Shown here piece after piece: positions 15,737-41,728 of a stretch of DNA of 63,929 nucleotides (position 1 is the stretch's first letter; the number at the start of each line of letters is the position of its first letter). Below the pieces are notes generated by a model. That model saw only the letters and a program-made list of their open reading frames with translations, had not been told where the DNA came from and did no database searches. The translations under genes and the position numbers were made by a program. Source of the stretch: Candidatus Omnitrophota bacterium (GTDB lineage Bacteria > Omnitrophota > Gorgyraeia > Gygaellales > Profunditerraquicolaceae); the NCBI GenBank assembly GCA_028716705.1, contig JAQUPI010000005.1, positions 1-63,929 of the forward strand, written 5' to 3'.

Positions 15737-16927
15737 ATGACAATGCCAGATATCGACAGGCAGTTGGAGGTAATCAAAAGAGGCGCGGTTGAGATAATTT
15801 CAGAGGAGCTGTTAAGGAAGAAATTAGAGGAGAGCATAAAAGCCGGCCGGCCCCTGGCCGTTAAGGCCGGATTTGACCCTACCGCTCCCGATATACACTT
15901 AGGGCACACGGTTTTGCTGCGCAAATTGCGCCAATTCCAGGACCTCGGGCACAAGGTAATTTTTCTGATCGGGGACGCCACCGCTTTAGTGGGGGACCCT
16001 TCCGGGCAATCGCAAACCAGAAAGGCGCTGACCCTTGAGGAAGTCGAGCAGAACGCGAAGACTTATATAAAGCAGGTCGGTAAGATACTGAACACCGCGG
16101 ACCGGCGCCTTTTTGAGCGCCGCCATAACAGCGAATGGTTTTCGCGCGGCTTCGATTTTGAGCAATTTGTGGAACTTGCCCAGAGATACACCGTCGCCCG
16201 CCTTTTGGAAAGGGATGATTTTCAAAAGCGGATGAAGGAAAATAAACCGATCACCTTCCTTGAGCTTTTTTATCCGTTGATGCAGGGCTTTGATTCTTAC
16301 AAATTAAAATCGGACGTGGAAATCGGAGGTACCGACCAGAAATTCAATTTGCTGGTCGGCAGGGACATTCAGGAGGCCTATGGAGAACCGGCCCAGGTGG
16401 TTATTACCATGCCGCTTCTGGAAGGGACCGACGGCGCGCTAAAGATGAGCAAATCTTACGGAAATTACATAGCCATAAACGACCGGCCCCCGGATATGTT
16501 CGGGAAGATCATGTCAGTTTCTGACGAAATGATGCTGAAATACTACACGCTGTTCACTGACACGGACCTGGAAAATATCAGGCAATTACACCCGATGGAG
16601 GCGAAATTAGACCTCGCTGAGAACATCACATCTTTTTACCACGGCGCCGCCGAGGGGAAAAAGGCAAAGGAGAATTTTAAGCAGGTCTTCAGCGATAAAG
16701 ATGCCCCCGAGGAGATGCCTGTATACAAGTTAAGGGGGGAAGGAGAAGGGATAATTGACATTCTCATCAACAGCGGCCTTACCGGATCAAAGAATGACGC
16801 CCGCAGGCTGGTAAACCAGGGCGGAGTATCTTTAGGCGGGGAGAAGATCGGAAATGAAGGCGTTGTAGTGAAAGCGGGGGGCATCCTCAAAGCCGGTAAA
16901 AGACGGTTCCTGAAGCTGATAAAATAA
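15737..16927 (+). CDS. tyrS: Tyrosine--tRNA ligase
   Basis: 396 aa. HLGH and KMSKS motifs; C-terminal S4-like domain (RRLVNQGGVSLGGEKI). Confidence 0.95.
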   Translation: MTMPDIDRQLEVIKRGAVEIISEELLRKKLEESIKAGRPLAVKAGFDPTAPDIHLGHTVLLRKLRQFQDLGHKVIFLIGDATALVGDPSGQSQTRKALTLEEVEQNAKTYIKQVGKILNTADRRLFERRHNSEWFSRGFDFEQFVELAQRYTVARLLERDDFQKRMKENKPITFLELFYPLMQGFDSYKLKSDVEIGGTDQKFNLLVGRDIQEAYGEPAQVVITMPLLEGTDGALKMSKSYGNYIAINDRPPDMFGKIMSVSDEMMLKYYTLFTDTDLENIRQLHPMEAKLDLAENITSFYHGAAEGKKAKENFKQVFSDKDAPEEMPVYKLRGEGEGIIDILINSGLTGSKNDARRLVNQGGVSLGGEKIGNEGVVVKAGGILKAGKRRFLKLIK

Positions 16928-18168
16928 TGCTGAATAGATTCAAGAAGATCGATCCTTTCGGGAAGAATATCATATTGGTTTTTGCCGGCACGACCTTAGG
17001 CAATGTATTCAATCTGCTTTATCAGCTTCTCATCGCGCACCGCATGAGCCCGCAGGATTTCGCGGGATTTAATTCGCTGCTTTCTTTGTTCATGCTGATC
17101 ACCGCTCCGCTGTCAACATTGCACACAGGCGTCTGTAAATACCTGGCGGATTTTAACGCCCGGGGCGAGCTCGTTAAAGTGCGCGCTTTATTATCCGCGC
17201 TCTTAAGAAAAATATTGCCGCTCGCCGCGGTCACCTGCGTTATTTTCTATCTTTCTTCTTTTTATATCATTGCCAAGCTGAAGATCGTTTCCGGGTGGGC
17301 GGGAAGCATCCTGGCGGCATCCCTGGCAGCGGCCTGGATCAGCCCGGTTTTATGGGGGGCGCTGCAGGGTCTGGAGTTGTTCCGGTGGTTCGTCCTGATG
17401 TCCATCATATGCGGGATCACGAAATTGATCTTCGCTTTTTCTTTTTTGAACCTGGGCTATAATATTTCCGGCGCGTTGTCCTCTTTTCTGCTGTCGCTCT
17501 TGGCGGGGATCGCCATTTCTTTTTTCCCCTTAAAGCGGCTGATCTCCTTTAAAAAGGCGGAAGGCGAAATAAATCTAATGGATTTCTTTTTATACCTCGC
17601 TCCGGTAGCCGTAAGCTTTTTTTGTTTTATGGCTTTGGTGAATCTGGATATGGTCCTGGTTAAATATTTTTTCAGCAGGGAAGACGCCGGATTTTATTCT
17701 TTGGCGCAGATGGAAGGGAAAATATTCCTTTTCTTGCCCTTAGCCATAAGCATCGTAATGTTCCCGAAAACGGCCGGGCTGAACGCCGTAAAAATGAAAA
17801 CCGGTTCGATACTCATGAAATCGCTTTTTTACGCTTTTGGCCTATGCGCCGCGGCGAATATTTTCTTTAACATTTTCCCGTCTTTTATCCTGAAGGCGCT
17901 CACCGGCAAGGCCCCGCTTGAATCCATTGTTTTGGGGAGGTTCTTCGGGGTGTCCATGAGCTTTTTCGCCCTTTTATTGATCCTGATGAATTATTTCCTT
18001 TCCATAAAAGATTTGCGTTTTATGAAATACCTTATTGTATCGGCGGCGCTGCAGCCTTTGGCAATCGTATTTTTCCATAAGAACCTGATCCAGGTGCAAT
18101 CCATAATTTGCCTGAATTCCATACTGTTATTTTTATCTTTATTCAGTTTATTCCGTAAAAGACAATGA
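16927..18168 (+). CDS. MOP/Wzx-type oligosaccharide flippase (polysaccharide biosynthesis protein)
   Basis: 413 aa, polytopic (about 12 hydrophobic segments). First gene of the glycan cluster. The call rests on topology and context. Confidence 0.65.
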   Translation: MLNRFKKIDPFGKNIILVFAGTTLGNVFNLLYQLLIAHRMSPQDFAGFNSLLSLFMLITAPLSTLHTGVCKYLADFNARGELVKVRALLSALLRKILPLAAVTCVIFYLSSFYIIAKLKIVSGWAGSILAASLAAAWISPVLWGALQGLELFRWFVLMSIICGITKLIFAFSFLNLGYNISGALSSFLLSLLAGIAISFFPLKRLISFKKAEGEINLMDFFLYLAPVAVSFFCFMALVNLDMVLVKYFFSREDAGFYSLAQMEGKIFLFLPLAISIVMFPKTAGLNAVKMKTGSILMKSLFYAFGLCAAANIFFNIFPSFILKALTGKAPLESIVLGRFFGVSMSFFALLLILMNYFLSIKDLRFMKYLIVSAALQPLAIVFFHKNLIQVQSIICLNSILLFLSLFSLFRKRQ

Positions 18169-18947
18169 AGGAAAAGATCTCCGTAGTCATGCCGGCTTAT
18201 AACGAGTCGGCGCATATTAATTCCAGCATAGAAGAGACGGTAAAGGCATTCGAGAGCTTCGGTTATTCGTGGGAGCTTATCGTGCTCGATGACGGCTCAA
18301 CCGATGACACTTTCGAGAGAGCGCTCCGCTTCGCGGAAAAATACCCGCAATTGACCGTAAAAAAGAACCCTTATAACCTTGGAAAGGGCAGGGCGATAAA
18401 GAAGGCGATGCACTATGTAAGCGGGGATTATGTGCTTTTTCTGGACGCGGACCTGGATCTGCATCCCAACCAATTCCCGGCTCTTTTTGATATTATGCGC
18501 TTGAATAACGCCGATATCGTGATCGGTTCAAAATTGCACCCAAATTCGGTGGTGGATTACCCGCTTCAGCGCAAATTGATCAGCTGGATCTATTATTTGA
18601 CGGTAAGGGCATTGTTTAACCTGCCCTGCCACGACACGCAGACAGGATTAAAGCTATTCAGGGCCCAGGTGCTTAGGGATGTAATGCCGCGCATCCTGGT
18701 AAAGGCGTTCGCCTTTGACCTGGAGATCCTGGTAAACGCCCATCACCTGGGATACAAGATCACGGAAGCGCCGATAGTCATCACCAAGCGCAGGAATTAC
18801 GGCCGCATCGGCCCCCAGGCCATCTTAAGGGCGGGCCTGGATACCCTGGCAATATTTTACAGGATGTATATATTAAGATACTATGACCGTATCGATTATT
18901 ATCGCCGTAAAAACCTGGCAAAAGAATTTAGAAGAATGCGCCGCTGA
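18165..18947 (+). CDS. GT2 glycosyltransferase, polyprenyl-phosphate sugar synthase-like (DPM1/GtrB-like)
   Basis: 260 aa. VVMPAYNE, LDDGSTDDT, NLGKGRA, LDADLD and DTQTGLKLF motifs. Confidence 0.75.
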   Translation: MKEKISVVMPAYNESAHINSSIEETVKAFESFGYSWELIVLDDGSTDDTFERALRFAEKYPQLTVKKNPYNLGKGRAIKKAMHYVSGDYVLFLDADLDLHPNQFPALFDIMRLNNADIVIGSKLHPNSVVDYPLQRKLISWIYYLTVRALFNLPCHDTQTGLKLFRAQVLRDVMPRILVKAFAFDLEILVNAHHLGYKITEAPIVITKRRNYGRIGPQAILRAGLDTLAIFYRMYILRYYDRIDYYRRKNLAKEFRRMRR

Positions 18948-19845
18948 GTGCCTTAAGCTCGACTATCCGGATTTCGAAATAATTATTTTACCGGACGCAG
19001 ACATAGGGACTGTCCCCGCTGTCCCTGTACGGATCATCCCTACAGGCCCGGTAAGCCCGGCCAAGAAAAGAGATATGGCCTTAAATTACGCCAAAGGCGA
19101 TATACTCGCCTTTATCGACGACGACGCTTATCCCGTAAAAGATTGGCTTACAAACGCTGTAAAGAATTTCGAAGATCCTGAGGTAGCTGCCGTGGGAGGT
19201 CCGGCTGTAACTCCCGCGAGCGACAATATAAGACAGAAAGCAAGCGGCCGGGTTTATGCCTCAATTTTGGTCAGCGGAAGCTTTTCTTACAGGTACCTTC
19301 CAAAAAGAAGAATGGAGATAGATGACTATCCCAGCTGTAATTTCTTCGTCCGTAAGTCCGTAATGCTGCAACTCGGCGGTTTCAACACAAATTTCTGGCC
19401 GGGGGAGGACACGAAACTTTGTTTGGATATAACGAAAAAACTGGGTAAAAAGATAGTTTATGACCCCGAGGTAATGGTCTACCATCACCGCAGGCCTTTA
19501 TTTATCCATCATCTGGGACAGATCGCCAGTTACGCCCTTCACCGGGGTTATTTTGTCAAACGCTATCCGGAGACCTCTTTAAAGCCGGCTTATTTTGTCC
19601 CTACTTTATTCTTATTCGGCATTATAATCGGGGCCGCCTTCTCTTTGCTCTCAACGCCTGCCAGAATAGTATACAGCTTAGGCTTAACGGTTTACCTGTC
19701 TTTAGTCCTTATATCCAGTTTCTCAAAGCAGATACTTTCCGTTCCCTATGTTTTTTGCGGAACGATATTAACGCATTTTACTTACGGGTTTTATTTTTTA
19801 AAGGGATTAATTTCCAGCAGGCTCAGAGAAGAGGATCTTCGGTGA
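18883..19845 (+). CDS. GT2 glycosyltransferase with C-terminal TM segments
   Basis: 320 aa. VSIIIAVKT, DFEIIILPD and FIDDDAYP (DxD) motifs. Hydrophobic C-terminus. 65-nt overlap with the preceding GT2. Confidence 0.75.
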   Translation: MTVSIIIAVKTWQKNLEECAAECLKLDYPDFEIIILPDADIGTVPAVPVRIIPTGPVSPAKKRDMALNYAKGDILAFIDDDAYPVKDWLTNAVKNFEDPEVAAVGGPAVTPASDNIRQKASGRVYASILVSGSFSYRYLPKRRMEIDDYPSCNFFVRKSVMLQLGGFNTNFWPGEDTKLCLDITKKLGKKIVYDPEVMVYHHRRPLFIHHLGQIASYALHRGYFVKRYPETSLKPAYFVPTLFLFGIIIGAAFSLLSTPARIVYSLGLTVYLSLVLISSFSKQILSVPYVFCGTILTHFTYGFYFLKGLISSRLREEDLR

Positions 19846-21353
19846 AAGTAATTATTTCTTATCCGCCTATTGATACGGAAAAAGGTTATCCTACCCTTGG
19901 TCAAAACCGGCAATTCCAGTTTTTCAGGGAACCGACGTACATATATCCGGTCGTCCCCGCTTCCGCGGCTACATTGTTGAAAAAAGCGGGCCATCAGGTT
20001 ATCTGGAATGACTGCATCGCGCTGGGTTGGGATTACCCAAGGTTCCTCGAATTTGTAAAAGCGGAAGAGCCCGGCCTGATCGCTATCGAGACCAAGACCC
20101 CGGCGGTCAAACAACACTGGAAAATAATTAATGATATTAAGGAGCTGTTCACGCGGATGGCTGATCCGAAAGAAACCGGGGGGACTGCCCCTCAAGTTGT
20201 CCTATACGGGGACCATGTTACTGCCCTGCCCGAAGAATCATTCCTGAACTCTAAAGTGGATTTTGTGCTGACAGGAGGGGATTACGACTTCCTTCTGCTA
20301 AATCTATGTAATTTCCTTTCTAGAAAGGAAACCAGGGGGATTGTCCCTGAAGATACCGAATTAGAACCGGGTATCTATTACCGTGACAACGGCCGGATCA
20401 GGAGTTCCGGCCAGTTCCAGCTCAACCATGACCTGGATTCGCTGCCGTTTATCGACAGGGAGCTTACTGATTGGCGGTTATACGCTTTCCAAAACGGTAA
20501 TTATAAACGCACACCCGGGACTTACATTATGAGCGCGAGGGACTGCTGGTGGGGTAAATGCACTTTCTGCAGCTGGCCTCAGATCTATCCTCGGTTTCGC
20601 AGCCGAAAGGCAGTGAATGTCCTCGATGAGATCGGCTCGCTGATTGAAAATCAAGGGGTCAGGGAGATAATGGACGACTCAGGCTCTTTCCCTGTCGGCC
20701 AATGGATTAATGATTTTTGCGAGGGGATGATCGCCCGCGGGTATAATAAACGGATATTCCTGGATTGCAATATGCGTTTTGGCGCTTTGTCCTTCGGAGA
20801 GCTAAATTTAATGAAGAGGGCGGGTTTTCGCCTGCTTCTTTTCGGGCTTGAGTCAGCTAACCAGGCAACTCTCGACAGGCTAAAAAAGAACATAAAAGTC
20901 GAAGATATCGTGGAGGGATGCCGGCAGGCCTCCAAAGCGGGATTATATCCGCATATCACGATCATGTTCGGTTATCCCTGGGAAACTTATGAAGATGCCT
21001 TAAAGACCCTGCGGTTAGGCGGATGGCTTTTAAGGAAAGGCTACGCTTACACTATGCAGGCTACAATGGTGATCCCTTATCCCGGCACCCCGCTTTTTGA
21101 AGAATGTAAACGTGAAAACCTGCTGAATACGCTTAATTGGGAAGATTATGATATGAAGAGTCCGGTAATGAAGACTAACGTTGAGGCCAGCAAGATAACG
21201 GGGCTGGTCCAGGGAATGTACAGGGTTTCTTTCCAGCCGGAGTTCATATTAAGAAAGCTCCTTTCATTAAGGGATATGGACGACATAAAATATTATTTTC
21301 GGGCGCTAAAGAAGGTAGGCGGACACATTTTTGATTTCAGGGGCCTGAAATAG
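19842..21353 (+). CDS. B12-binding-domain radical SAM protein (non-canonical Cx4Cx2C motif)
   Basis: The GTG start at 19842 overlaps the upstream stop; the track start 19755 is an unlikely extension. N-terminal Rossmann-like region (LIAIETKTP). Cluster motif DCWWGKCTFCSW. LLLFGLESANQ. Confidence 0.75.
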   Translation: MKVIISYPPIDTEKGYPTLGQNRQFQFFREPTYIYPVVPASAATLLKKAGHQVIWNDCIALGWDYPRFLEFVKAEEPGLIAIETKTPAVKQHWKIINDIKELFTRMADPKETGGTAPQVVLYGDHVTALPEESFLNSKVDFVLTGGDYDFLLLNLCNFLSRKETRGIVPEDTELEPGIYYRDNGRIRSSGQFQLNHDLDSLPFIDRELTDWRLYAFQNGNYKRTPGTYIMSARDCWWGKCTFCSWPQIYPRFRSRKAVNVLDEIGSLIENQGVREIMDDSGSFPVGQWINDFCEGMIARGYNKRIFLDCNMRFGALSFGELNLMKRAGFRLLLFGLESANQATLDRLKKNIKVEDIVEGCRQASKAGLYPHITIMFGYPWETYEDALKTLRLGGWLLRKGYAYTMQATMVIPYPGTPLFEECKRENLLNTLNWEDYDMKSPVMKTNVEASKITGLVQGMYRVSFQPEFILRKLLSLRDMDDIKYYFRALKKVGGHIFDFRGLK

Positions 21354-21371
21354 GGCGCTGTCCCCAATTAA

Positions 21372-22373
21372 ATGAAATATTCTATTGATAAGGACAATCG
21401 GCTTTTAATAAGGCAAAAGGGCAAAAAGGTTTCCCCGAAAGGCGCATTCAAGATAGAGAAGAATAACCGTCTTATCTATATTTTGAACGAACCAGCGCAT
21501 TGGCGCAGGGTACACAAGCTGCCTTCCAGGATAGTATTTCTCGGTAAATGGAAACTGGATGAAAATCATGACCTGGTCCTTGAGCGCAATGAGCCCAGGG
21601 AGAAAAAAGAGGGCCGGTTCGTATTCAAAGGAGAGATCATCTCAAGCCGTAAGGACGCCTTAGCTTTTGAGATCATCAGCCGTGACCGCAGAGGCCATAC
21701 GCAGGCGCAGGTATTAGAGCTGTCCGGTGCCTGGCAAGCCGATAAATCGAACCGTATAATATTTAAGGCGGATAAGAAAGGGATGCCCGATACCCTGACG
21801 CTGGAAGGTTCCTGGCAGCTTGATAACAACCAGCAGGTCACCTATAACTATGAAAAAACAAACTTATTAAAAAGGGCCAAGATATCCCGTTCTTTGACTT
21901 TCGAAGGCTTTTGGCAGATCAATGAAAAAAACCGTTTAACCTATATTTTATCCCGCGCCAGCCGTTCCCGTTTCGATTTTCGCGCGCAAATAGAGAGCCC
22001 GAGCCTGCGTCCTAAGGAAGGACAGATGAAATACCGCCTAGGCATAGGCCTCGCCAAGCCCAAGTCGCAAAAAAAGCGTATCGTTACGCTTTACGGGGCA
22101 TGGAAATTCAGCCGAAAGGGCGGGTTGGATTTCTCCATGGATTACGGAAAGGGCGCGTCCAGGACGGTTGAATTCGGCGTCAATGCCCATCTGAATAATA
22201 AGGACGAGATTATCTTTTCTTTGCGCAGCAAGAAAGGCGAGCCCTTGGGGTTGAATATCACTTTTAACCGCGAACTTTTTAAGGGGAATGGCGCGCTGGC
22301 CTATTTACGGCTGAAAAATCTCCTTGAAAGAAATAAACCCGCTGTGGAAGCGGGCGTGCGCATACCTTTTTAG
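21372..22373 (+). CDS. Hypothetical repeat protein (about 10 degenerate beta-hairpin-like G-x-W-x-hydrophobic-D-x-x-N-x-L repeats)
   Basis: 333 aa with no signal peptide. Repeats include GKWKLDENHDLVL, GAWQADKSNRIIF, GSWQLDNNQQVTY, GFWQINEKNRLTY and GAWKFSRKGGLDF. Confidence 0.6.
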   Translation: MKYSIDKDNRLLIRQKGKKVSPKGAFKIEKNNRLIYILNEPAHWRRVHKLPSRIVFLGKWKLDENHDLVLERNEPREKKEGRFVFKGEIISSRKDALAFEIISRDRRGHTQAQVLELSGAWQADKSNRIIFKADKKGMPDTLTLEGSWQLDNNQQVTYNYEKTNLLKRAKISRSLTFEGFWQINEKNRLTYILSRASRSRFDFRAQIESPSLRPKEGQMKYRLGIGLAKPKSQKKRIVTLYGAWKFSRKGGLDFSMDYGKGASRTVEFGVNAHLNNKDEIIFSLRSKKGEPLGLNITFNRELFKGNGALAYLRLKNLLERNKPAVEAGVRIPF

Positions 22374-22390: not shown

Positions 22391-22648
22391 ATGGTTTGGA
22401 AGATTATCGGGATGAGCGCGGCTGTATTGACCATGTTTTCTTTTGTACCGCAGATCATCACGATCCTAAAGCATAAGTCGGCCAAGGATGTAAGCATAGT
22501 TACGCTGCTGCAGCTTTCGCTGGGCGTTTCGTTGTGGATAGTTTACGGCCTTTTTTTAAATGACAAGATCATAATTACAGCCAATGCCGTTACTTTGACC
22601 ACCCTGGCAATATCGTTATATCTTTATTTCAAGTACAAAAACGGCTAA
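22391..22648 (+). CDS. SemiSWEET / PQ-loop family small membrane transporter
   Basis: 85 aa, three TM segments, with the PQ motif in MFSFVPQIITILKHKSAKDVS. Confidence 0.8.
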   Translation: MVWKIIGMSAAVLTMFSFVPQIITILKHKSAKDVSIVTLLQLSLGVSLWIVYGLFLNDKIIITANAVTLTTLAISLYLYFKYKNG

Positions 22649-23732: not shown

Positions 23733-24370
23733 AGTTACCTGAGCATGTCAAAATAGGACAGGACCACAGGATCGAGACCGGTGTGGAGCTCGGATATTTA
23801 CCGGGCAGGAAGATAGCTGATCTTTCCCTGACGATAGGAAAGAACGCGGTGCTCAGGACGGGAAGCGTTATTTACGCCGGCACGAAGATCGGAGATCATT
23901 TCGAAAGCGGCCATAATGTAGTGATCAGAGAAGATGTTTCTATCGGTGATGGCTCCGCCGTATGGAGCAATTCGGTGGTTGATTACTCCTGCCGCATAGG
24001 CAGCAAGGTTAAGATACATAATAACTGCTATATAGCCCAATTCACCAATATAGAGGACGATGTCTTTATCGGCCCGGGGGTCATAACCGCCAATGACCCG
24101 CATCCGGTTTGCACAAAATGCATGAAAGGGCCCACCATAAAACGCGGCGCTAAAATAGGCGCTAATGTGACCATACTGCCCAGAGTGACTATCGGAGAGT
24201 ACGCTTTAGTCGGCGCCGGAAGCGTGGTAACCAAAGATGTGCCGCCGAGATCAGTAGTATACGGTAATCCCGCCCGGGTCATTAAGTCCGTTGAAGACCT
24301 GGAATGCGGCCTCAATATCGTTGACAAGCCCTATATAAATGGAGATGACGTCCGCTCGCGAGAGCATTAA
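23729..24370 (+). CDS. Left-handed beta-helix (hexapeptide) acyl/acetyltransferase (WbpD-like)
   Basis: 213 aa. Hexapeptide repeats (IGDGSAVWSNSVV, IGANVTILPRVTIGEYALVGAGSVV). Confidence 0.8.
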   Translation: MKLPEHVKIGQDHRIETGVELGYLPGRKIADLSLTIGKNAVLRTGSVIYAGTKIGDHFESGHNVVIREDVSIGDGSAVWSNSVVDYSCRIGSKVKIHNNCYIAQFTNIEDDVFIGPGVITANDPHPVCTKCMKGPTIKRGAKIGANVTILPRVTIGEYALVGAGSVVTKDVPPRSVVYGNPARVIKSVEDLECGLNIVDKPYINGDDVRSREH

Positions 24371-27179: not shown

Positions 27180-27183
27180 TTCC

Positions 27184-34276: not shown

Positions 34277-36075
34277 AGAAGGAAATCGCTATTTTTTTAT
34301 CCTTTATTTTACTGATCGCCGCGTTTACCTACCCTTTGGCAACGAATATTAATTCTTATGTCCCCGGGTTTTCTTCCACCGATGAAGTATATGCGCTGAT
34401 AAATTACAGCTGGCTGAATAAATACAGCTGGCAGCACCAATTGCCCCTGAACCGCAGTTTTATGCTCGCTTATCCCTCCGGAATAAATTTATACACTCCC
34501 GGGTTCGTTCCGTTCTTTTGGATCGGCATAATTTATCTTTTGAGCATAGCCACCAGCCCGGCAATAACTTATAATATACAGGTACTTACTAATTTATTCT
34601 TAAGCGCGGCCTTCACTTATTTATTGATCCTGTTCCTTTCCAAAAAAAGATTCAGCGCTTTTTTGGGCTCTTTGATATTTGCTTTTTGCCCGTATCAGTT
34701 TTCCCGGATATGGCAGCATTTAGGGCTGACTTTCAATCAGTGGATACCGTTGTGCCTGCTGGCGGCTTTATTATTAAAATACAGGAAGAGCAAGAAATAC
34801 GCTTTTTTATTCCTCGCAAGCCTGCTGCTGCTTTTTTCTTTTGATTATTCGATCATCTATTTTTCCCTCGTTGGCCTGGCAACCCTTCTTTTTTACTCTA
34901 TTCTTTTCAACTGGAAGAAAAAATTTTCGGAGGGCCGGGGCATGTTCAGGGAAGACCTGCGGTATTTAAAGAAGATCGTTCTTTTGGGTGCCGTTTCTTT
35001 CCTTATCCTTTTGCCGCAAATCATGCCCATAATAAAAAACAGGCTCGGTTTTTCCGTTAAGACGGACCCTTCTCCGTTCAACCTCTTCCACCGCCAGTTT
35101 AACGACCTCTTTTCTCAGGCTGCCAGGCCTTTAAGTTATTTTCTTCCGTCGATATCGCATCCCGTTTTCGGTTCTTTTACGGAGAATTTCATCGGGTCTT
35201 CATTGTACGGAAAAAGCCTCACGGAACACGCCCTTTATTTAGGTTGGACACCGCTTTTTCTGGCCTTTTTTGCTTTGAGATCATGGAGGAAAAGAAGGAA
35301 ATCATGGGGGCCGGAATATCAAGGAACGGAGGAGAATTTTTATATCGGTTTTTCGCTTCTTTTGCTGATTACAGCCTGGTTGTTTTCCCAGCCTCCATGG
35401 TGGAAAATAGGCCCTGTCAAAATATTCATGCCCTCATTTTTCATGTATAAGCTTCTGCCGATGTACCGCGCCTATTGCCGTTTCGGAATTTTAGTTATGC
35501 TGGCGGTAGCGATGCTGGCCGGTTTCGGAAGTAAATTCATCCTAGAAAAGTTAAAAAGGAAGAGGGACCGGATATTGGCGGCGTCTTTATTTACATTCGC
35601 CGTCTTATTCGAATTCTGGAATTGGCCCCCTTACAAGGTCATTGATATATCGGCTGCGCCGTCGGCATATGATTGGCTTAAGGCCCAGCCGGAGGAACTT
35701 GTGGTAGCCGAATATCCGCTTGACGATGATTCTCCGAATGAGATGTATAAATATTATCAGACCAAGCATGAAAAAAAGCTGATCAACGGCAGCACCCCGG
35801 GGACTTACGCTAACCAGGTCGCCAAGACGCTCAAGAAACTGTCCCTCCCCGAGACAGCCGAGAAACTCAAAACTATGGGTGTAAAATACGCCATAGTGCA
35901 CAGGGACGATTACGGCATAACAGGCCTGATCGAGCAGTTGGAAGAGTTGAATAAGATCCCTCTAAACCCCAGGCTAAAATTAGTCACGAGCTTCCCGGAA
36001 GAGGCTTGCCCGAGAAGCGATATCATGTGCGTGCGTAAAAGCGGCCCCATTGATGTTTATGAAATAATCCCTTAA
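34273..36075 (+). CDS. Polytopic membrane protein, GT-C-fold-like glycosyl/oligosaccharyl transferase candidate
   Basis: 600 aa. At least 10 TM segments followed by a ~150-aa soluble C-terminal domain. Acidic motif (STDE) in the first extracytoplasmic loop. The call rests on topology and context only. Confidence 0.45.
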   Translation: MKKEIAIFLSFILLIAAFTYPLATNINSYVPGFSSTDEVYALINYSWLNKYSWQHQLPLNRSFMLAYPSGINLYTPGFVPFFWIGIIYLLSIATSPAITYNIQVLTNLFLSAAFTYLLILFLSKKRFSAFLGSLIFAFCPYQFSRIWQHLGLTFNQWIPLCLLAALLLKYRKSKKYAFLFLASLLLLFSFDYSIIYFSLVGLATLLFYSILFNWKKKFSEGRGMFREDLRYLKKIVLLGAVSFLILLPQIMPIIKNRLGFSVKTDPSPFNLFHRQFNDLFSQAARPLSYFLPSISHPVFGSFTENFIGSSLYGKSLTEHALYLGWTPLFLAFFALRSWRKRRKSWGPEYQGTEENFYIGFSLLLLITAWLFSQPPWWKIGPVKIFMPSFFMYKLLPMYRAYCRFGILVMLAVAMLAGFGSKFILEKLKRKRDRILAASLFTFAVLFEFWNWPPYKVIDISAAPSAYDWLKAQPEELVVAEYPLDDDSPNEMYKYYQTKHEKKLINGSTPGTYANQVAKTLKKLSLPETAEKLKTMGVKYAIVHRDDYGITGLIEQLEELNKIPLNPRLKLVTSFPEEACPRSDIMCVRKSGPIDVYEIIP

Positions 36076-36090: not shown

Positions 36091-36804
36091 ATGCAGACAG
36101 TAATTCTATGCGGAGGCAAAGGCACGCGTATGGGCTGCGAAGACCTGCCGAAGCCCCTATTTCCGATAGGCGACAAGCCGATACTCTGGCACATTATGAG
36201 AATATACGCGTTTTATGGATCCAGGGATTTTATACTTTGCCTGGGGTATAAAGGCGGCCAGATCAGGGATTATTTTAAAAAAGTAAGAACCTGGAAAATA
36301 ACTTTCGCCGATACCGGTACAGACACTCACACCGGAGGAAGGATCGCCAGGATCAGGCGGCACATCAAGGATGATAATTTTTTTGCCACATACGGGGACG
36401 GTTTGGCGGATATCAGATTGGATAAATTGCTCGATTTTCACAAAAGCCATAAGAAAATAGCCACAATTTCCGTCGTCAGGCCTAATTCGCCTTTCGGTAT
36501 AGTGGGGGTGCATCCAAAGACCCAGGCAGTGACCCATTTTGAAGAGAAGCCTTTGCTGGACCACTGGATAAACAGCGGATTTTTTGTTTTTAACAAAAAG
36601 ATATTTAATTACATACGCGACACGGATATACTGGAAAAGCAGAGTTTCGGACGCTTGACAGCCGAAAAGAACCTTTGCGCGTACAAACATAAAGGTTTCT
36701 GGGAATGCATGGATACTTATAAGGATAACCTTAGATTAAAGGAGCTTTGGAATTCCGGGGACCCTCCCTGGGCAGTATGGCGAAAAAGGAGAAAAGCCAA
36801 ATGA
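36091..36804 (+). CDS. rfbF: Glucose-1-phosphate cytidylyltransferase
   Basis: 237 aa. VILCGGKGTRM, PKPLFPIGDKPILWHIM and YGDGLAD motifs. Confidence 0.85.
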   Translation: MQTVILCGGKGTRMGCEDLPKPLFPIGDKPILWHIMRIYAFYGSRDFILCLGYKGGQIRDYFKKVRTWKITFADTGTDTHTGGRIARIRRHIKDDNFFATYGDGLADIRLDKLLDFHKSHKKIATISVVRPNSPFGIVGVHPKTQAVTHFEEKPLLDHWINSGFFVFNKKIFNYIRDTDILEKQSFGRLTAEKNLCAYKHKGFWECMDTYKDNLRLKELWNSGDPPWAVWRKRRKAK

Positions 36805-37802
36805 AAGATAATAAATTCTGGGATAATAAAGCGGTCCTGATAACCGGGGCCAACGGTTTTCTGGCCTCGCATTTAACCGCCGCTTTATTACGGAAAAAAG
36901 CCAAAGTCATAGGGGTAATTAAATACAACGTGCCTTCTTTGCTGGATAGCGACGCGATCAAAAGAAGCGCTAAGCTGAAGATCATAAAAGGCGATATCGT
37001 GGATTACCCCTTTGTAAAAAAATGTATGAAGGCCTATAAGCCGCAGTTTTGTTTTCATCTGGCAGCCCAGGCGATCGTTGGAAAAGCAAATAAACGGCCC
37101 ATACCTACCTTTAAAACTAATATACAGGGGACATGGAATTTACTGGAGGCGATCAGGGAAGCCAGCCCTGCTACAAAGATCATAGTCGCCTCAAGCGACA
37201 AGGCATACGGAGAGCATAAAAAACTGCCTTATATGGAGAACGCCGCCCTTCAGGCGCTGCATCCTTACGACGCTTCCAAGGCTTGCGCCGATATCCTTGC
37301 CCGGACATACGCGCACACTTATAATTTATCCGTGGCTGTCAGCCGCTGCGCGAACATATACGGTCCGGGCGACACGAACTTTTCCAGGATCATTCCGGAC
37401 ACAATGCGCTCGGTGCTTCTGGGTAAAGACCCGGTTATACGCAGTGACGGCACGCCGATAAGGGATTATATTTATATAGAAGATGTAGTCGAGGCTTATC
37501 TGGCCCTGGCAAAAGCGCTTTATTTAAGCCGGCCGGGAGTCAACGGAGAGCCGTTCAACTTCGGCACGGGAAGGCCGATCAGCGTGCTAAGGCTGGTAAA
37601 GATGATGATAAAGATCTCCGGAAACAGGAAATTAAAGCCGAGAATCCTCAGTAAAACCAAGATAAAGGGTGAAATAGACAGGCAGTACCTTTCCAGCGGT
37701 AAGGCGGTCAGCCTCCTGAAGTGGAGGGCAAGGCATGGCATTGCTGAAGGCTTGAAAAAAACGTTTGTTTGGCATAAGGAGCGTTGCCGTAAATGGGCGT
37801 AA
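36801..37802 (+). CDS. rfbG: CDP-glucose 4,6-dehydratase
   Basis: Start at MKDNKFWDNKAVLITGANGFLASHL (ATGA overlap with rfbF). SSDKAYG and YDASK motifs. Confidence 0.8.
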   Translation: MKDNKFWDNKAVLITGANGFLASHLTAALLRKKAKVIGVIKYNVPSLLDSDAIKRSAKLKIIKGDIVDYPFVKKCMKAYKPQFCFHLAAQAIVGKANKRPIPTFKTNIQGTWNLLEAIREASPATKIIVASSDKAYGEHKKLPYMENAALQALHPYDASKACADILARTYAHTYNLSVAVSRCANIYGPGDTNFSRIIPDTMRSVLLGKDPVIRSDGTPIRDYIYIEDVVEAYLALAKALYLSRPGVNGEPFNFGTGRPISVLRLVKMMIKISGNRKLKPRILSKTKIKGEIDRQYLSSGKAVSLLKWRARHGIAEGLKKTFVWHKERCRKWA

Positions 37803-39613
37803 ATATCCTGGGTTTATCCTGTTTTTACCATGACAGCGCGGCGTGCGTCTTGCGCGACGGGGAAATAATCGGCGCCGCGCAGGAAGAGCGTTTTACGCGC
37901 AAGAAACACGACTCCGGCTTTCCTGGGAATTCCATAAACTGGTGCCTTAGAGAAGGCGGAATTACCGCTAAAGAGCTGGATTTTATCGTTTTTTACGAGA
38001 AACCGCTCATTAAATTCGAGCGTATCCTGGAGACTTATCTCTCCAGCGCTCCTTCGGGAATACGGCAATTCATCCAGGCGATGCCATTGTGGGTTAAACA
38101 GAAGCTCTGGATCCCCGAGATAATCAGGAAGGAATTGGGCTTTGAAGGAAAGATATTATTTTGCGGCCACCATGAATCCCACGCGGCCAGCGCTTTTTAT
38201 CCCTCACCCTTTAAAGAAGCGGCTTTTTTGACCATGGACGGCGTCGGCGAATGGGATACCGCCAGTTTCGGCACAGGAAGGGATAATGAGATCGAAATTT
38301 TACAGACCTTGAGGTTCCCGCATTCTTTGGGGTTATTATATTCAGCCTTTACGTATTACGCCGGTTTTAAAGTCAATTCAGGGGAATACAAATTAATGGG
38401 CCTGGCGCCTTACGGGGAGCCGAAATACGCGGATTTGATCCTTGATGAATTGATCGACCTGAAAGAAGACGGCTCATTTAAGCTGAATATGAAATACTTC
38501 GGTTATTGCAGCGGCCTGAGGATGACCAACGGGAAATTCGACAAACTCTTTGGGGGCCCTGCCCGCAAGGCGGAAACGAAGATAACACAGAAGGATATGG
38601 ATATCGCGGCTTCCATCCAAAAAGTAACGGAAGAGATAATGTTAAGAATGATCCGGTACGCGCATAAGGTAACCGGGAAAGATAAGTTATGCCTGGCGGG
38701 AGGAGTGGCTTTAAACTGCGTGGGTAACGGCAGGATCTTGCGCGAAGGGCCTTTCCGGGAGATATGGGTACAGCCGGCGAGCGGGGATGCCGGAGCAGCG
38801 TTAGGCGCCGCTCTTTTAGCCTGGCATAAATATTCGGGCAATCCCAGGGCGAGCGACGATAAAAATGACAAACAGAAGGCTTCGCTCCTTGGGCCGGCAT
38901 ACAGCGAAGAGTATATTGAAGATTTTCTTAAGAAAGAAGGGATAATATACGAAAAGTTAGCTCATGCTGACATACCATTCATGATCGCGGACCTGATCGA
39001 CAGCCAAAATGTGATCGGCTGGTTCCAGGGCAGGCTGGAATTCGGGCCAAGGGCTTTGGGCGCGCGCAGTATAATCGGCGACCCGAGAAACCCTGAAATG
39101 CAGTCAAAGATGAATTTAAAGATCAAATACCGGGAATCATTCCGTCCTTTCGCCCCCTCGGTTTTGCTTGAGAAGGCCGGCGATTGGTTTGACCTGGATA
39201 AAGAGAGCCCTTATATGCTCCTGGTCGCTCCCGTTAAGAAAGAGAAAAGGCTGGCAGGCGGCAAGGAAGAGAATTTATCCGGTTTCGATAAATTGAAGAT
39301 AGAACGCTCGAAGATCCCCGCGGTTACGCACGTGGATTATTCCGCCAGGATCCAGACCGTAAAGAGCGAAGACAACCCCTTATTTTATGGCGTTATAAAA
39401 GCGTTCTATGAAAAAACAGGATGTCCTGTTATAATAAATACTTCTTTCAACGTCAGGGGAGAGCCTCTTGTCCTTACCCCCCAGGACGCTTATAGATGTT
39501 TTATGAGAACGGAGATGGATTGCCTCATTATGGGTCCATTCCTCCTGGATAAGAAAAAACAGGATCCAGTGAAAAAGGACGTAAAATGGCAGCAGGAGTT
39601 CGAATTGGATTAA
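37793..39613 (+). CDS. Carbamoyltransferase (NodU/CmcH/SxtI family)
   Basis: 606 aa. ILGLSCFYHDSAACVL, HHESHAASAF and LNTSFNVRGEP-like (INTSFNVRGEPLV) motifs. Confidence 0.9.
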   Translation: MGVNILGLSCFYHDSAACVLRDGEIIGAAQEERFTRKKHDSGFPGNSINWCLREGGITAKELDFIVFYEKPLIKFERILETYLSSAPSGIRQFIQAMPLWVKQKLWIPEIIRKELGFEGKILFCGHHESHAASAFYPSPFKEAAFLTMDGVGEWDTASFGTGRDNEIEILQTLRFPHSLGLLYSAFTYYAGFKVNSGEYKLMGLAPYGEPKYADLILDELIDLKEDGSFKLNMKYFGYCSGLRMTNGKFDKLFGGPARKAETKITQKDMDIAASIQKVTEEIMLRMIRYAHKVTGKDKLCLAGGVALNCVGNGRILREGPFREIWVQPASGDAGAALGAALLAWHKYSGNPRASDDKNDKQKASLLGPAYSEEYIEDFLKKEGIIYEKLAHADIPFMIADLIDSQNVIGWFQGRLEFGPRALGARSIIGDPRNPEMQSKMNLKIKYRESFRPFAPSVLLEKAGDWFDLDKESPYMLLVAPVKKEKRLAGGKEENLSGFDKLKIERSKIPAVTHVDYSARIQTVKSEDNPLFYGVIKAFYEKTGCPVIINTSFNVRGEPLVLTPQDAYRCFMRTEMDCLIMGPFLLDKKKQDPVKKDVKWQQEFELD

Positions 39614-40012
39614 ATGGAAAAACTCAATTTTAATAAAATAGACCTGAAGAAATTCGGGATAACCATGGCGGCAGCCTTTATTGCGATAGCTTCCATACTG
39701 GCGTTGAGGCATAAACACAGCTTTTTGCCTTTATCGATATCCGCGGGTTTCTTTCTTGCCGCTATTATCGCGCCGCTTTTCTTAAAGCCGTTTTATATTT
39801 TCTGGATGAGGCTTGCCTTTGTATTGAGCTGGGTAAATACCAGGCTTATTTTATTTATCTTATTTTTCCTTGTGTTTGCCCCTATGGGGATCATGATGCG
39901 GATCTTTGGCAAAGACTTCCTCGAGAGAAAAATAGATAAAAAGGCCGGATCTTATTGGAAGAAAGCCGAAAAGAAGGTTTTTAGCAGGTCAGATCATGAA
40001 AGGCAATTTTAG
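39614..40012 (+). CDS. SxtJ-like small membrane protein
   Basis: 132 aa. LKKFGITMAAAF; three hydrophobic segments; GKDFLERKIDKKAGSYWKK tail. Lies directly after the carbamoyltransferase. Confidence 0.65.
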   Translation: MEKLNFNKIDLKKFGITMAAAFIAIASILALRHKHSFLPLSISAGFFLAAIIAPLFLKPFYIFWMRLAFVLSWVNTRLILFILFFLVFAPMGIMMRIFGKDFLERKIDKKAGSYWKKAEKKVFSRSDHERQF

Positions 40013-40049: not shown

Positions 40050-40208
40050 ATGGGGAAGCTTTCAATATTGCGTGAATTTTGGGATTTCTTGCGTATAAGG
40101 AAAAAATGGTGGCTTACTCCTATAGTGGCCATGCTTTTATTGCTGGGCATGCTGATCTTCTTTACCCAGTCTTCCGCAGTCGCGCCTTTTATATACACAC
40201 TTTTTTAA
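40050..40208 (+). CDS. Unannotated 52-codon ORF: SxtK/DUF5989-like small membrane protein
   Basis: Not in the ORF track (<60 aa). RBS aggagg lies 8 nt upstream. Translation: MGKLSILREFWDFLRIRKKWWLTPIVAMLLLLGMLIFFTQSSAVAPFIYTLF. The sequence and its position next to the carbamoyltransferase and SxtJ fit this family as I recall it. Confidence 0.7.
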   Translation: MGKLSILREFWDFLRIRKKWWLTPIVAMLLLLGMLIFFTQSSAVAPFIYTLF

Positions 40209-40223
40209 ATCGAAAGGGATCTA

Positions 40224-41003
40224 ATGATAAAAAAAATCGCCTTATACTTCACGATCTTGCTTTCAGCCGCTATAATTTTGTGCGCCTTTAACGAAGCGTC
40301 AAAAAATAACCCCGCCTCAATAATTAAAGATAATAACTTACATGACAAGCTCAGCCAGGACCCCCGCAAGATAGTCCTTCTGGTGAATTTATTTGGCCTG
40401 ATCCCGGCCGCCGAAGCCACTTTTGAGGACAGGGGAATAGAGCTTTATGAGGGCAGGGAAGTGATCCATCTTAGCGGATACGCGAGGCCGTTAAATTTTA
40501 TCCGTAAATTCTTCAACGCCCGGGCGGAAGCGGATTCATATATGGATAAGGATAAATTACATGCCTTAAGGTTCAGACAGAAGATAATCCGTCCGAATAA
40601 GGCAGACGAGAGGGAGATCTTTTATAACCAAAAAGATAATTTCATGGAAGCCGAAGGGGTAAAAAGGCAGATACTGCCGGATACCCACGACCCTTTCTCG
40701 GCAATATTTTACCTGCGTAAACAGCCCTTGCGGGTAGGCAGCGCCTTAGACCTGAATATAAACACGAACCAGAAGAATTATCAGTTTTTAGTGAAAGTGA
40801 CGAAGAGGGAAGAGTACTCGATAGGGTCAAAAAAAATAGGGGTCTGGGTGCTGGAAGCGGTCGTCAGAAGGCGCGATAACAACCCCTACCACAAGACAAC
40901 GATCAAATTCTGGCTTCTGGATAACCCTTCAAAAACGCCCATATTGTTCAAGGCGATGACTAACGTCGGACAAGTAACCGCCAGGCTAACAGCGATAGAA
41001 TGA
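40224..41003 (+). CDS. DUF3108-like exported protein
   Basis: 259 aa. Signal peptide; HDPFSAIFYLRKQPLRVG and IKFWLLDNPSKTPILF resemble DUF3108 signatures (from memory). Confidence 0.5.
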   Translation: MIKKIALYFTILLSAAIILCAFNEASKNNPASIIKDNNLHDKLSQDPRKIVLLVNLFGLIPAAEATFEDRGIELYEGREVIHLSGYARPLNFIRKFFNARAEADSYMDKDKLHALRFRQKIIRPNKADEREIFYNQKDNFMEAEGVKRQILPDTHDPFSAIFYLRKQPLRVGSALDLNINTNQKNYQFLVKVTKREEYSIGSKKIGVWVLEAVVRRRDNNPYHKTTIKFWLLDNPSKTPILFKAMTNVGQVTARLTAIE

Positions 41004-41728
41004 CCGAAAATAAAATTAAAACCAAGGATATAATAAAAGATTACGACAGGATCTATTCGACTACAGGCCTGAGGACTAATAGCGCGTATTATAGATGGAT
41101 CATTAAAATGCTGCGTCCGATGCCTAACGCCAGGATCCTTGATGTATCCTGCGGCGAAGGATCATTATTAAGAGAAATAGCGAAATTAAATAAGAACATT
41201 GACGCTTATGGACTGGATATATCGGACGTAGCGGCCGCTATAGCGCGGAAGAACGCGCCCAAAGCGAAAATAATGTCAGCGGACGGGCAAAGGCTTCCCT
41301 TTGCCGATGAGTCGTTCGATTATGTAACCTGTTTAGGCAGCCTGGAACACTACCTGGATATCAGCCTCGGCCTAAGAGAGTTATTCAGAGTGGCCAAAAG
41401 AGAGGCGAGGTTTTGCATAGTGCTTCCCAACTCTTTCAGTATCCATGTTTTCTTGGAAATACTAAGGTCCGGAAACAGATTTCCGGATAATTTCCAGATC
41501 ATAGAAAGGACCGCGACAAAACAGGAGTGGATCGATTTATTGGACAAGAATGGTTTCTCCGTAAGAAAGATCTACGGGTTTAACCTATGGCCGGAATTAT
41601 TTAAAGAGGGAACGTTAAAAATTAAATCGATACCAAAATATTTAAAGCGCGTGCTTATTAAATATCTTTGCCCTTTAAATTTAGCGAAAGAATTCGTGTT
41701 TATCTGCGAAAAAAAGGGTAAGCTGTAA
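41000..41728 (+). CDS. Class I SAM-dependent methyltransferase
   Basis: 242 aa. ILDVSCGEGS, FDYVTCLGSLEH and RFCIVLPN motifs. Confidence 0.8.
   Translation: MTENKIKTKDIIKDYDRIYSTTGLRTNSAYYRWIIKMLRPMPNARILDVSCGEGSLLREIAKLNKNIDAYGLDISDVAAAIARKNAPKAKIMSADGQRLPFADESFDYVTCLGSLEHYLDISLGLRELFRVAKREARFCIVLPNSFSIHVFLEILRSGNRFPDNFQIIERTATKQEWIDLLDKNGFSVRKIYGFNLWPELFKEGTLKIKSIPKYLKRVLIKYLCPLNLAKEFVFICEKKGKL

Follow-up and report, generated by a model that had tools for sequence, protein, structure and literature searches.

We analyzed a stretch of 63,929 nucleotides from a Candidatus Omnitrophota bacterium (GenBank assembly GCA_028716705.1, contig JAQUPI010000005.1; hereafter, the window), in which a cluster of 25 genes at positions 16927-41728 includes three radical S-adenosylmethionine (SAM) proteins, designated rSAM1, rSAM2, and rSAM3. 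Across bacteria and archaea, rSAM1 and rSAM2 are each locked to their own partner from glycosyltransferase family 2 (GT2). The locus very probably assembles a glycan, and its radical SAM proteins are likely to act on sugar residues; to C-methylase activity in one or more of them we give slightly less than an even chance. The explanation that we favor overall, with our confidence about evenly balanced, is that the cluster forms the variable part of a lipopolysaccharide (LPS)-type glycan locus built of mobile glycosyltransferase and tailoring cassettes.

Gene neighborhoods were compared using called genes with precomputed Pfam matches and 80 metagenome loci annotated by phmmer (related loci are numbered here with the prefix L). 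The neighbor counts rest on simple open reading frame (ORF) calling and on phmmer with the window proteins as probes, and the taxon labels of contigs from metagenome-assembled genomes (MAGs) may include binning errors. A homolog of GT2b (18883-19845; Pfam GT2), the membrane-anchored glycosyltransferase encoded directly before rSAM1 (19842-21353), adjoins the rSAM1 ortholog in 7 of 7 informative loci. The partner of rSAM2 (28113-30347) in the window is GT2d (27184-28116), a Pfam GT2 protein with one C-terminal segment in the transmembrane (TM) scan, and a GT2 gene lies immediately upstream of the rSAM2 ortholog in 15 of 19 informative loci. MftF is the nearest NCBIfam model of GT2b, GT2c, and GT2d, all of which score below its cut-off (107 versus 280 bits for GT2b). 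GT2b and GT2d were also compared with polyprenyl-phosphate synthases of the GtrB/DPMS type: GT2b has no sequence match in the PDB, and those of GT2d cover only generic GT-A N-terminal regions (chondroitin synthase, other GT2 enzymes, PglI, and, with an E-value of 1e-4, DPMS).

The pairwise identity among the three radical SAM proteins is just 26-28%, and they therefore represent three separate families. All three have the class B architecture by sequence comparison and may bind cobalamin. rSAM2 is a fusion protein (rSAM2-MT2), in which Pfam detects a B12-binding domain at residues 26-134 (E 8e-18), a radical SAM core with a CX3CX2C motif at 203-210 (C203, C207, and C210), and a class I methyltransferase domain at 534-689. 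In rSAM3 (32059-33462), a B12-binding domain (E 1e-13) precedes a core with the same motif at 187-194 (C187, C191, and C194). rSAM1 matches Pfam Radical_SAM and carries a CX4CX2C motif (C235, C240, and C243). The Pfam B12 domain (PF02310) is found in more than half of the rSAM1 homologs with 65-76% identity, and the profile of the rSAM1 family aligns with that of the rSAM2 family over residues 39-446, including the N-terminal domain (hhalign probability 99.95%). An AlphaFold model of rSAM1 (pLDDT 78, pTM 0.83) matches MgmA, TsrM, AprD4, OxsB, and CysS over the full length (Foldseek E 1e-19 to 1e-14, TM-score 0.6-0.73). The B12 matches of its homologs, the profile alignment, and the predicted model thus place rSAM1 in the class B architecture despite its odd motif.

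On the evidence of gene order and identity, we regard the cluster as a mosaic of two conserved mobile cassettes, GT2a-GT2b-rSAM1 and GT2c-SDR-MT-GT2d-rSAM2(-MT), the latter designated cassette B. GT2a (18165-18947) is a soluble GT2 (Pfam Glycos_transf_2, E 8e-32) that recurs upstream of GT2b-rSAM1 in L006, L017, and L020; its best NCBIfam matches are polyprenyl-phosphate sugar synthases (AglJ, ArnC, PpgS, and a Dol-P-hexose transferase), which reach 39-66 bits versus cut-offs of 325-529. Cassette B opens with GT2c (24339-25349; Pfam GT2) and continues with SDR1 (25346-26461), a 371-residue extended short-chain dehydrogenase/reductase (SDR) of the epimerase/reductase type. SDR1 matches Pfam Epimerase in two stretches, and its best NCBIfam match is heptose 6-epimerase (135 versus 275 bits). 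The third gene encodes the class I methyltransferase MT1 (26454-27179; Pfam), which has homologs at the same position in L176 (61% identity), L003 (42%), and L006 (33%).

Homologs of the cassettes occur at 40-75% identity in Omnitrophota, Patescibacteria, Candidatus Hakubella, Methanolobus, and Aenigmarchaeota. In Candidatus Hakubella thermalkaliphila (L176; BLSE01000002.1, 6131-11497), GT2c, SDR1, MT1, GT2d, and rSAM2 follow one another in the order of the window, with identities of 68, 75, 61, 66, and 70%, respectively. This five-gene cassette, which matches window positions 24339-29580, has transposase genes (DDE_Tnp_1 and IS66) on either side, and these suggest that such a cassette moved recently between phyla. 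A Methanolobus MAG (L006) encodes homologs of GT2a (39%), GT2b (50%), rSAM1 (52%), MT1, GT2d (44%), and rSAM2 (57%), followed downstream by more methyltransferases and then an AftD-type GT-C protein. An Aenigmarchaeota MAG (L175) has counterparts of GT2b (46%), rSAM1 (50-63%), GT2d (41%), rSAM2 (57%), and MT2 (31%), together with PMT-type GT-C genes and homologs of several further cluster genes described below. In a Patescibacteria locus (L003), the order MT1-GT2d-rSAM2 is retained and rSAM2 is fused to a GT4 glycosyltransferase. The metagenome loci L017 and L019 present rSAM1, rSAM2, rSAM3, and a large membrane protein in this order, with other genes between them, and their rSAM3 orthologs (37-39% identity) occupy the same relative position as in the window. 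All the orthologous loci are dominated by glycosyltransferases, nucleotide-sugar enzymes, and GT-C proteins.

Two further observations concern these relatives. The rSAM1 ortholog of L175 (2037-4910; GCA_016783545.1) is 957 residues long and contains an intein (Intein_splicing and LAGLIDADG) beside its CX4CX2C motif; the parts that flank the intein are 50% and 63% identical to rSAM1 of the window. A Rosetta-stone link between the GT4 part of the Patescibacteria fusion and the GT4 protein of the window was considered and rejected, because the two are only 21% identical and belong to the same family without being orthologs.

The families are large. More than 4,000 homologs of rSAM2 were found, with relatives in Patescibacteria, Omnitrophota, Candidatus Hakubella, Aenigmarchaeota, Methanolobus, and Halobacteriota; among those listed, the identity is 52-71% over the radical SAM part and 41-46% over the longer alignments of methyltransferase-fused relatives. 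Such fusions to a methyltransferase include P0028, P0038, P0062, P0071, and P0101, and fusions to GT4 include P0020 and P0063. The rSAM1 family has more than 6,000 homologs, the named close ones all being from Omnitrophota except for two labeled "bacterium", and the rSAM3 family has 4,590 representatives of 50% clusters at E <= 1e-30. These families span two domains of life, and yet all cluster cysteines, along with dozens of further residues, show no variation in them. A scan of genome contigs with a single protein returned five distant paralogs only (22-36% identity), and a scan of viral contigs returned only rSAM2 paralogs of at most 34% identity, none orthologous to the cassette enzymes; there is therefore no evidence of phage-borne cassettes in these contigs. 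The viral set (IMG/VR contigs L095-L174) contains 101 stretches with B12-type radical SAM paralogs, some on contigs longer than 100 kb. Other rSAM2 paralogs of about 30-35% identity, in L046, L055, L074, L076, L082, and L092, lie directly downstream of a gene for a protein of 1,085-1,223 residues, and this protein shows no match to the proteins of the window cluster; they form a distinct set with a conserved context of another kind.

The sequence-only reading described the cluster as unusually rich in cobalamin-type radical SAM enzymes. This holds in comparison with cultured model organisms, but homologous cassettes are common in uncultured anaerobes, and a B12-type radical SAM gene is present in the same kind of locus in all four of the other Omnitrophota loci examined.

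As for the reaction, C-methylation is favored because most characterized class B enzymes methylate, because the nearest solved structure is that of a methylase, and because genuine cobalamin domains, namely, those of TsrM, CysS, OxsB, and TokK, can be aligned with the N-terminal domain of rSAM2. The structure in question is MgmA (9CCB), the closest by sequence to all three radical SAM proteins (E 2e-25, 3e-9, and 5e-16). A number of observations weigh against this assignment or against the larger explanation. Class B also includes the non-methylases HpnJ, BchE, and OxsB, the sequence of a class B enzyme does not reveal its function, and no sequence signature tells methylases from non-methylases (PMC9204698). 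None of the three proteins reaches the cut-off of any named family in NCBIfam, where HpnJ, BchE, PhpK, ApyD, HpnR, AprD4, KedN5, MgmA, BzaD, and other class B families were scored; hence, homology does not provide a reaction. The best scores are 119 bits for rSAM1, 167 for rSAM2, and 163 for rSAM3, obtained with HpnJ, BchE, ApyD, and PhpK models that have cut-offs of 480-750 bits. The scores generally amount to about a fifth to a half of the cut-offs, the highest ratio being that of rSAM2 to TIGR04013 (135 versus 251 bits). Because these scores are far below cut-off and the PDB matches share less than 20% identity, we rejected assignment of the radical SAM proteins to a named family. This classification by profile models thus placed none of them in a well-characterized non-methylase family, and equally none in a methylase family.

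The other adverse points concern the individual proteins and their setting. The CX4CX2C motif of rSAM1, in place of CX3CX2C, is invariant within its family, and rSAM1 has no Pfam B12-binding match of its own, even at E <= 1. AprD4 (6FD2) is the second-best PDB sequence match for both rSAM2 and rSAM3, and for the rSAM1 model it ranks fourth by Foldseek E-value with the highest query TM-score. Three extra cysteines of rSAM2, namely, C249 (within the invariant motif NDDCF), C261, and C297, are invariant in 28 bacterial and archaeal members of its family; in the alignment with MgmA, the positions of C249 and C297 are not occupied by cysteine. These residues could be ligands of an auxiliary cluster or could have a catalytic role. 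Among the 67 ORFs of the 64-kb window scanned with Pfam, we found no cob or btu gene and no initiating phosphoglycosyltransferase of the WecA/WbaP type, although the latter may be encoded elsewhere in the genome, and Rfam detected no cobalamin riboswitch in the window. In addition, the host is uncultured, and the stage at which a substrate would be modified may be the nucleotide sugar, the lipid-linked sugar, or the polymer. The C-methylated product proposed by the sequence-only reading was deduced from family membership; in a class that contains non-methylases, and with AprD4 as the second-best match, we do not consider it established.

The alternative that survives best, which we rate as rather unlikely, is that the radical SAM proteins tailor sugars of the glycan without methylation, either by an AprD4-like dehydration together with SDR1, which would yield deoxy sugars, or by a ring contraction or rearrangement like those of HpnJ and OxsB. 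In the profile search, the score of AprD4 was close to that of MgmA (97.2 versus 98.8 bits), and the structural comparison of the rSAM1 model also puts AprD4 near the top (TM-score 0.65-0.72); however, its alignment covers only the core of rSAM2, and its NCBIfam score is far below cut-off (95 versus 500 bits). The SDR gene is a fixed member of cassette B (75% identity in Hakubella), which mirrors the AprD4/AprD3 pair (PMC5461906). HpnJ, for which contraction of the sugar ring of glucosaminyl-hopanoid has been proposed, is the best NCBIfam match of rSAM1 and rSAM2, but at 119-167 versus 578 bits. The atypical cluster motif of rSAM1 and its lack of a Pfam B12 match would suit such chemistry, whereas the clear Pfam B12 domains of rSAM2 and rSAM3, and the fact that methylases are the majority of characterized class B enzymes, argue for methylation.

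It is improbable that the radical SAM proteins act outside the glycan, on a peptide or on a lipid of the membrane, such as a hopanoid-like, ether-type, or ladderane-type lipid or the polyprenyl carrier itself. They show generic similarity to HpnJ, HpnR, and rSAM_ladder_B12 and to ApyD and rSAM_ocin_1, methylases of peptides that are made by ribosomes and then modified post-translationally; their C-terminal ends look basic and hydrophobic by eye, which could mean membrane association; and distant paralogs of about 30% identity occur in non-glycan contexts. However, Pfam detected in the cluster no genes for lipid synthesis, precursor peptides, proteases, or exporters, the orthologs are tied to their GT2 partners in the proportions given above, with some fused to GT4, and the orthologous loci have the glycan-dominated content already described. 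Lipid and peptide substrates had been left open by the sequence-only reading, and the gene context now ties the radical SAM proteins to glycosyltransferases rather than to lipid or peptide genes.

That the cluster is an ordinary O-antigen-type locus with the radical SAM genes as inactive or incidental passengers is highly implausible: in Omnitrophota, the loci for surface glycans are a hypervariable and mobile cargo (preprint 10.64898/2026.06.07.730766) and the GC content of the cluster is slightly below that of its flanks, but the radical SAM genes have intact reading frames with translational coupling to their partners, the identity reaches 50-75% across phyla, and the cluster cysteines and many other residues are conserved between domains of life.

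The favored explanation of an LPS-type glycan locus is also based on the remaining genes. All 25 genes are on the plus strand, head to tail, in an unbroken run with internal gaps of at most 52 nt, and numerous starts overlap the preceding stop by 4 nt, as expected from the 25 contiguous genes described from the sequence alone. Pfam likewise found all the domain classes named at that time (three radical SAM proteins, five class I methyltransferase domains, a carbamoyltransferase with SxtJ and DUF5989 proteins, and a SemiSWEET), and the gene content bears out the assignment to glycan assembly. The first gene (16927-18168) encodes a Wzx-like flippase, which is consistent with a Wzx/Wzy-dependent O-antigen pathway. 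The TM scan indicates about 11 TM segments, the Pfam Polysacc_synt match is marginal (29.4 versus a cut-off of 28.2 bits), and homologs are present in L013 (36% identity) and L175 (31%). Between rSAM1 and cassette B are two accessory genes and a pair of sugar-modifying enzymes. The first accessory protein (21372-22373; 333 residues) has internal G-x-W-x-[LIA]-[DN] repeats; no Pfam or NCBIfam match was found even at E <= 1, and no homolog in the related loci that were fetched. The second (22391-22648) is an 85-residue SemiSWEET with three TM segments (Pfam MtN3_slv and PQ-loop), and its homolog was found in just one related locus (L022, 63% identity). The pair consists of a GFO/IDH/MocA sugar dehydrogenase (22701-23732; Pfam), which resembles UDP-GlcNAc 3-dehydrogenase (NF040723, 193 versus 450 bits) and is 40% identical to its homolog in L175, and a hexapeptide-repeat sugar N-acetyltransferase (23729-24370; Pfam Hexapep) of the NeuD/PglB/VioB-like type (TIGR03570, 110 versus 161 bits).

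Cassette B is followed by a GT4 glycosyltransferase (30347-31507; Pfam Glycos_transf_1 and Glyco_transf_4), the best NCBIfam matches of which, including TuaC and WcaI, are all below cut-off. The adjacent MT3 (31494-32057; 187 residues) is class I methyltransferase-like, with a weak match to Pfam Methyltransf_11 (E 4e-6), and a 29% identical homolog adjoins rSAM2 in L004. MT4 (33470-34276) and MT5 (41000-41728), the last gene of the run, are class I methyltransferases by Pfam. A sugar-1-phosphate nucleotidyltransferase (36091-36804; Pfam) and a nucleoside-diphosphate (NDP)-hexose 4,6-dehydratase (36801-37802) form a pair with homologs in L004 (62% and 48% identity, respectively) and L175 (47% and 50%). 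The former is RfbF-like (TIGR02623, 249 versus 300 bits, below the equivalog cut-off), and the latter is RfbG/RmlB-like (TIGR02622, 193 versus 278 bits; TIGR01181, 176 versus 365 bits). Because these scores are below the RfbF and RfbG cut-offs and the score for dTDP-glucose dehydratase is nearly equal, the nucleotide carried by the sugar is uncertain. The sequence-only reading had annotated the pair as rfbF/rfbG, which are indeed the best-matching NCBIfam models, both below cut-off; the CDP-6-deoxyhexose that it derived from them cannot be maintained as established.

The downstream part of the cluster is, by sequence comparison, a conserved Omnitrophota backbone that receives the cassettes, shown by the recurrence of a GT-C protein, a carbamoyltransferase trio, and a DUF3108 protein. 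The large membrane protein at 34273-36075 (600 residues, at least 8 TM segments) has no Pfam match, some of its homologs match Pfam YfhO or DUF6311, and the named homologs are all from Omnitrophota. Its AlphaFold model (pTM 0.81) matches STT3, DPY19, AftD, AglB, AftA, PglB, and ArnT in Foldseek (E 4e-8 to 1.5e-3, probability 1.0). The model supports a GT-C fold, in a family that appears to be specific to Omnitrophota; in this respect, the earlier description of the protein as GT-C-like found support in the predicted structure, with Pfam giving none. The carbamoyltransferase (37793-39613) belongs to the NodU/CmcH family of O-carbamoyltransferases (Pfam Carbam_trans_N, E 3e-104; Carbam_trans_C, E 5e-73) and matches 7xb6, NovN, GdmN, and TobZ in the PDB over the full length (E 1e-95 to 1e-70), but does not reach the NodU equivalog (123 versus 1000 bits). 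It is followed by an SxtJ-family membrane protein (39614-40012; PF19588) with three TM segments and a 52-residue DUF5989 membrane protein (40050-40208; PF19451, E 5e-25), which takes the place of sxtK after sxtJ. The trio is conserved in L004, where the carbamoyltransferase gene lies on a 647-kb Omnitrophota contig (77, 47, and 79% identity, respectively), and the carbamoyltransferase-SxtJ pair is also present in L056. The DUF3108 protein (40224-41003; Pfam) has a signal or anchor segment at its N terminus. In each of four other Omnitrophota loci, a variable block of glycosyltransferase and nucleotide-sugar genes ends downstream with the GT-C homolog, which is followed by DUF3108 in three of the four and by Wzy_C, ManC, GT9, and DegT genes in two. 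The DUF3108 gene of L012 and that of L013 come directly after the GT-C gene; in L004, it is found after the carbamoyltransferase genes.

The run ends at 41728, as previously described, but the glycan locus does not: it continues in a second block on the same strand (54132-63116). The first protein of this block (54132-56195; 687 residues), which has no Pfam match, comprises at least 11 TM segments and a C-terminal soluble domain and is 53% identical to the product of the gene right after DUF3108 in L004. Therefore, the glycan locus is apparently split here by a type II secretion operon of about 12 kb and an ORF at 41901, and, judged by this gene order, a larger LPS-type locus begins with the 25-gene cluster as its first, variable block and resumes at 54132. 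The next two genes (56198-58100) encode a GT2 (56198-56875) and a Wzy_C protein of the O-antigen ligase/polymerase type (56868-58100), by Pfam, and the same pair is present in L012. The Wzy_C match does not distinguish a ligase from a polymerase, and the window contains one such protein. The remaining Pfam assignments, at 58947-63116, are a ManC-like nucleotidyltransferase (58947), a GT9 heptosyltransferase (60130), a DegT aminotransferase (61231), and a GT2 (62346), and the same four genes are found in the same order in L013. The Wzy_C and GT9 genes, shared by the window with L012 and L013, provide the link to LPS.

The intervening operon at 43210-54090 is a complete one of the type II secretion- or pilus-like kind, with GspE, GspF, GspG, pseudopilins, a PilM-PilN fusion (48744-50099), a MerR protein, an AAA ATPase, a GspC-like protein, and a secretin. 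In the secretin (52285-54090), a C-terminal TonB_C domain (Pfam E 8e-9) comes after the Secretin domain; we know of no earlier description of this fusion. The ORF at 41901-43097 (398 residues), which begins 172 nt past the cluster, has several E-x-x-H motifs and weakly matches MbfA in its ferritin-like region (E 7e-5), with no other family match even at relaxed thresholds.

Upstream of the cluster, the start codon of the Wzx-like gene overlaps the stop codon of tyrS, which is preceded by housekeeping genes (pilMNOQ-like, RNase G, L21, Obg, proB/proA, nadD, rpe, phosphogluco/phosphomannomutase, ispH, and S1). The plus strand carries nearly all ORFs of the window. The GC content of the cluster is 0.45-0.48, compared with 0.49-0.51 in the flanks. 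Promoter and terminator scans gave counts that were not above those of shuffled sequence, and the tRNA and Rfam scans of the window returned no tRNA gene and no match at all. The strongest terminator-like match of the scanned region is a hairpin on the minus strand (15665-15702) with a GC-rich stem of 15 bp, located in the 136-nt gap between rpsA and tyrS. Upstream of RNase G, the match of a 99-residue ORF (5053-5352) to Pfam DUF2344 (E 4e-38) is limited to the first 96 positions of a model with 176, which may reflect truncation of the gene or splitting of the domain.

A pathway can be proposed from these assignments. The nucleotidyltransferase/4,6-dehydratase pair would make a 4-keto-6-deoxyhexose with an uncertain nucleotide, SDR1 would contribute to the supply of nucleotide sugars, and the 3-dehydrogenase-like enzyme, the DegT aminotransferase (61231), and the N-acetyltransferase may together make a 3-acetamido sugar. 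At the inner membrane face, the four GT2 enzymes and the GT4 enzyme would join sugars into an oligosaccharide carried by polyprenyl phosphate. After each addition, the radical SAM enzyme encoded next door would abstract a hydrogen atom from an unactivated sugar carbon and then, most probably, transfer a methyl group from methylcobalamin, in the manner of the C-methylation by GenK, GenD1, and MoeK5. O- or N-methylation would be the task of the class I methyltransferases, and the carbamoyltransferase, acting at the membrane, would attach a carbamate. Finally, the Wzx protein would flip the product, and the GT-C protein, the Wzy_C protein, or both would attach it to the final acceptor.

In the literature on O-antigen, LPS, capsule, polysaccharide, and archaeal surface-glycan loci, we found no paper that links B12-type radical SAM enzymes to them, in agreement with the earlier statement that such enzymes are not known from ordinary O-antigen or capsule loci. 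The name of the NCBIfam model TIGR04157, glyco_rSAM_CFB, which appeared among the models in the glycosyltransferase search, suggests that curators noticed associations of glycosyltransferases with radical SAM proteins in other phyla. The enzyme class and the type of substrate are thus already known, and what appears to be new is the envelope-glycan setting, the fixed GT2 partners, the cassettes that move across domains, and a chemistry without assignment. Because the cluster is one representative of a widespread system, the question becomes more general and not less interesting. We tentatively propose, at somewhat below even confidence, that GT2b-rSAM1, GT2d-rSAM2, and their companions constitute an unrecognized, horizontally mobile glycan-tailoring system of Omnitrophota, Patescibacteria, DPANN archaea, and methanogens that places radical-derived modifications on the membrane-bound sugars of envelope glycans and so introduces a sugar chemistry new to surface polysaccharides. 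Such modifications might consist of branches (C-methyl or higher alkyl), of deoxygenation, or of the formation of carbocycles.

Few pools of enzyme chemistry without assignment are as large as that of the class B radical SAM enzymes, whose known sugar substrates are all from antibiotic or hopanoid pathways. Here, three families with thousands of members each, and with 50-75% identity across phyla and domains, are tied by gene order and fusion to glycosyltransferases of envelope glycans. The carriers include episymbiotic, ultra-small lineages (Omnitrophota, Patescibacteria, and DPANN) whose surfaces mediate contact with hosts. If surface sugars are indeed C-methylated, deoxygenated, or rearranged, this would define a new class of envelope glycan structures, offer new biocatalysts for late-stage sugar modification, and tie cobalamin demand to cell-surface synthesis in reduced genomes. 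The compact five-gene cassette GT2c-SDR-MT-GT2d-rSAM2 is a defined unit for heterologous reconstitution.

Among the known systems, the class B methylases GenK, GenD1, Fms7, and MoeK5 from the gentamicin, fortimicin, and moenomycin pathways also act on sugar carbons and are encoded in clusters with glycosyltransferases and class I methyltransferases (PMC9204698). However, they belong to secondary-metabolite pathways of actinomycetes, whereas the locus described here is an envelope locus of the Wzx/GT-C/ligase type in uncultured anaerobes and archaea, with dedicated GT2 partners and without sequence-level membership in their families. Moenomycin also bears an O-carbamoyl group beside its C-methyl sugar. 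MgmA (QCMT), the cobalamin-dependent C-methylase of a glutamine residue in methyl-coenzyme M reductase, is the best solved match of all three radical SAM proteins and, for rSAM1, also the best by fold (E 7e-19, TM-score 0.62/0.73). In contrast to the proposed sugar substrates, that of MgmA is a protein; the identity is less than 20%, the extra cysteines of rSAM2 have no equivalent, and the TIGR04014 scores are 47-129 versus 360 bits.

AprD4 carries a cobalamin-type domain yet works without cobalamin. Together with the reductase AprD3, this radical SAM 1,2-diol dehydratase carries out the C3' deoxygenation of apramycin (PMC5461906). It resembles the proteins of the cluster in acting on a sugar, in its N-terminal Rossmann domain, and in its reductase partner, for which cassette B has the SDR; it differs in that its product is an aminoglycoside antibiotic, in the NF033070 scores (49-95 versus 500 bits), and in an alignment limited to the rSAM2 core. 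HpnI is a GT2 that makes glucosaminyl-hopanoid. HpnJ, which is proposed to contract the sugar ring in the hopanoid pathway (PMC9204698), then follows it as a class B-type radical SAM enzyme on the lipid-bound sugar just added, a succession similar to that proposed here; in contrast, the HpnJ scores of the cluster proteins are low, no hopanoid genes are present, and the context is a glycan made by multiple glycosyltransferases. Three-component glycosylation systems (GtrA/GtrB/GtrV, CsbB/YfhO, and ArnC/ArnT) have possible counterparts in GT2a, the SemiSWEET, and the YfhO-like GT-C protein, but Pfam found no GtrA-family match here, GT2a is below the cut-offs, and Wzx and further glycosyltransferases are present. 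The three-gene arrangement of the carbamoyltransferase trio is the same as that of SxtI-SxtJ-SxtK, with Pfam matches to SxtJ and DUF5989; the functions of sxtJ and sxtK are not known (PMC2885083). Those genes serve an alkaloid pathway, whereas the trio of the window lies in a glycan locus and, in Omnitrophota, beside the GT-C gene.

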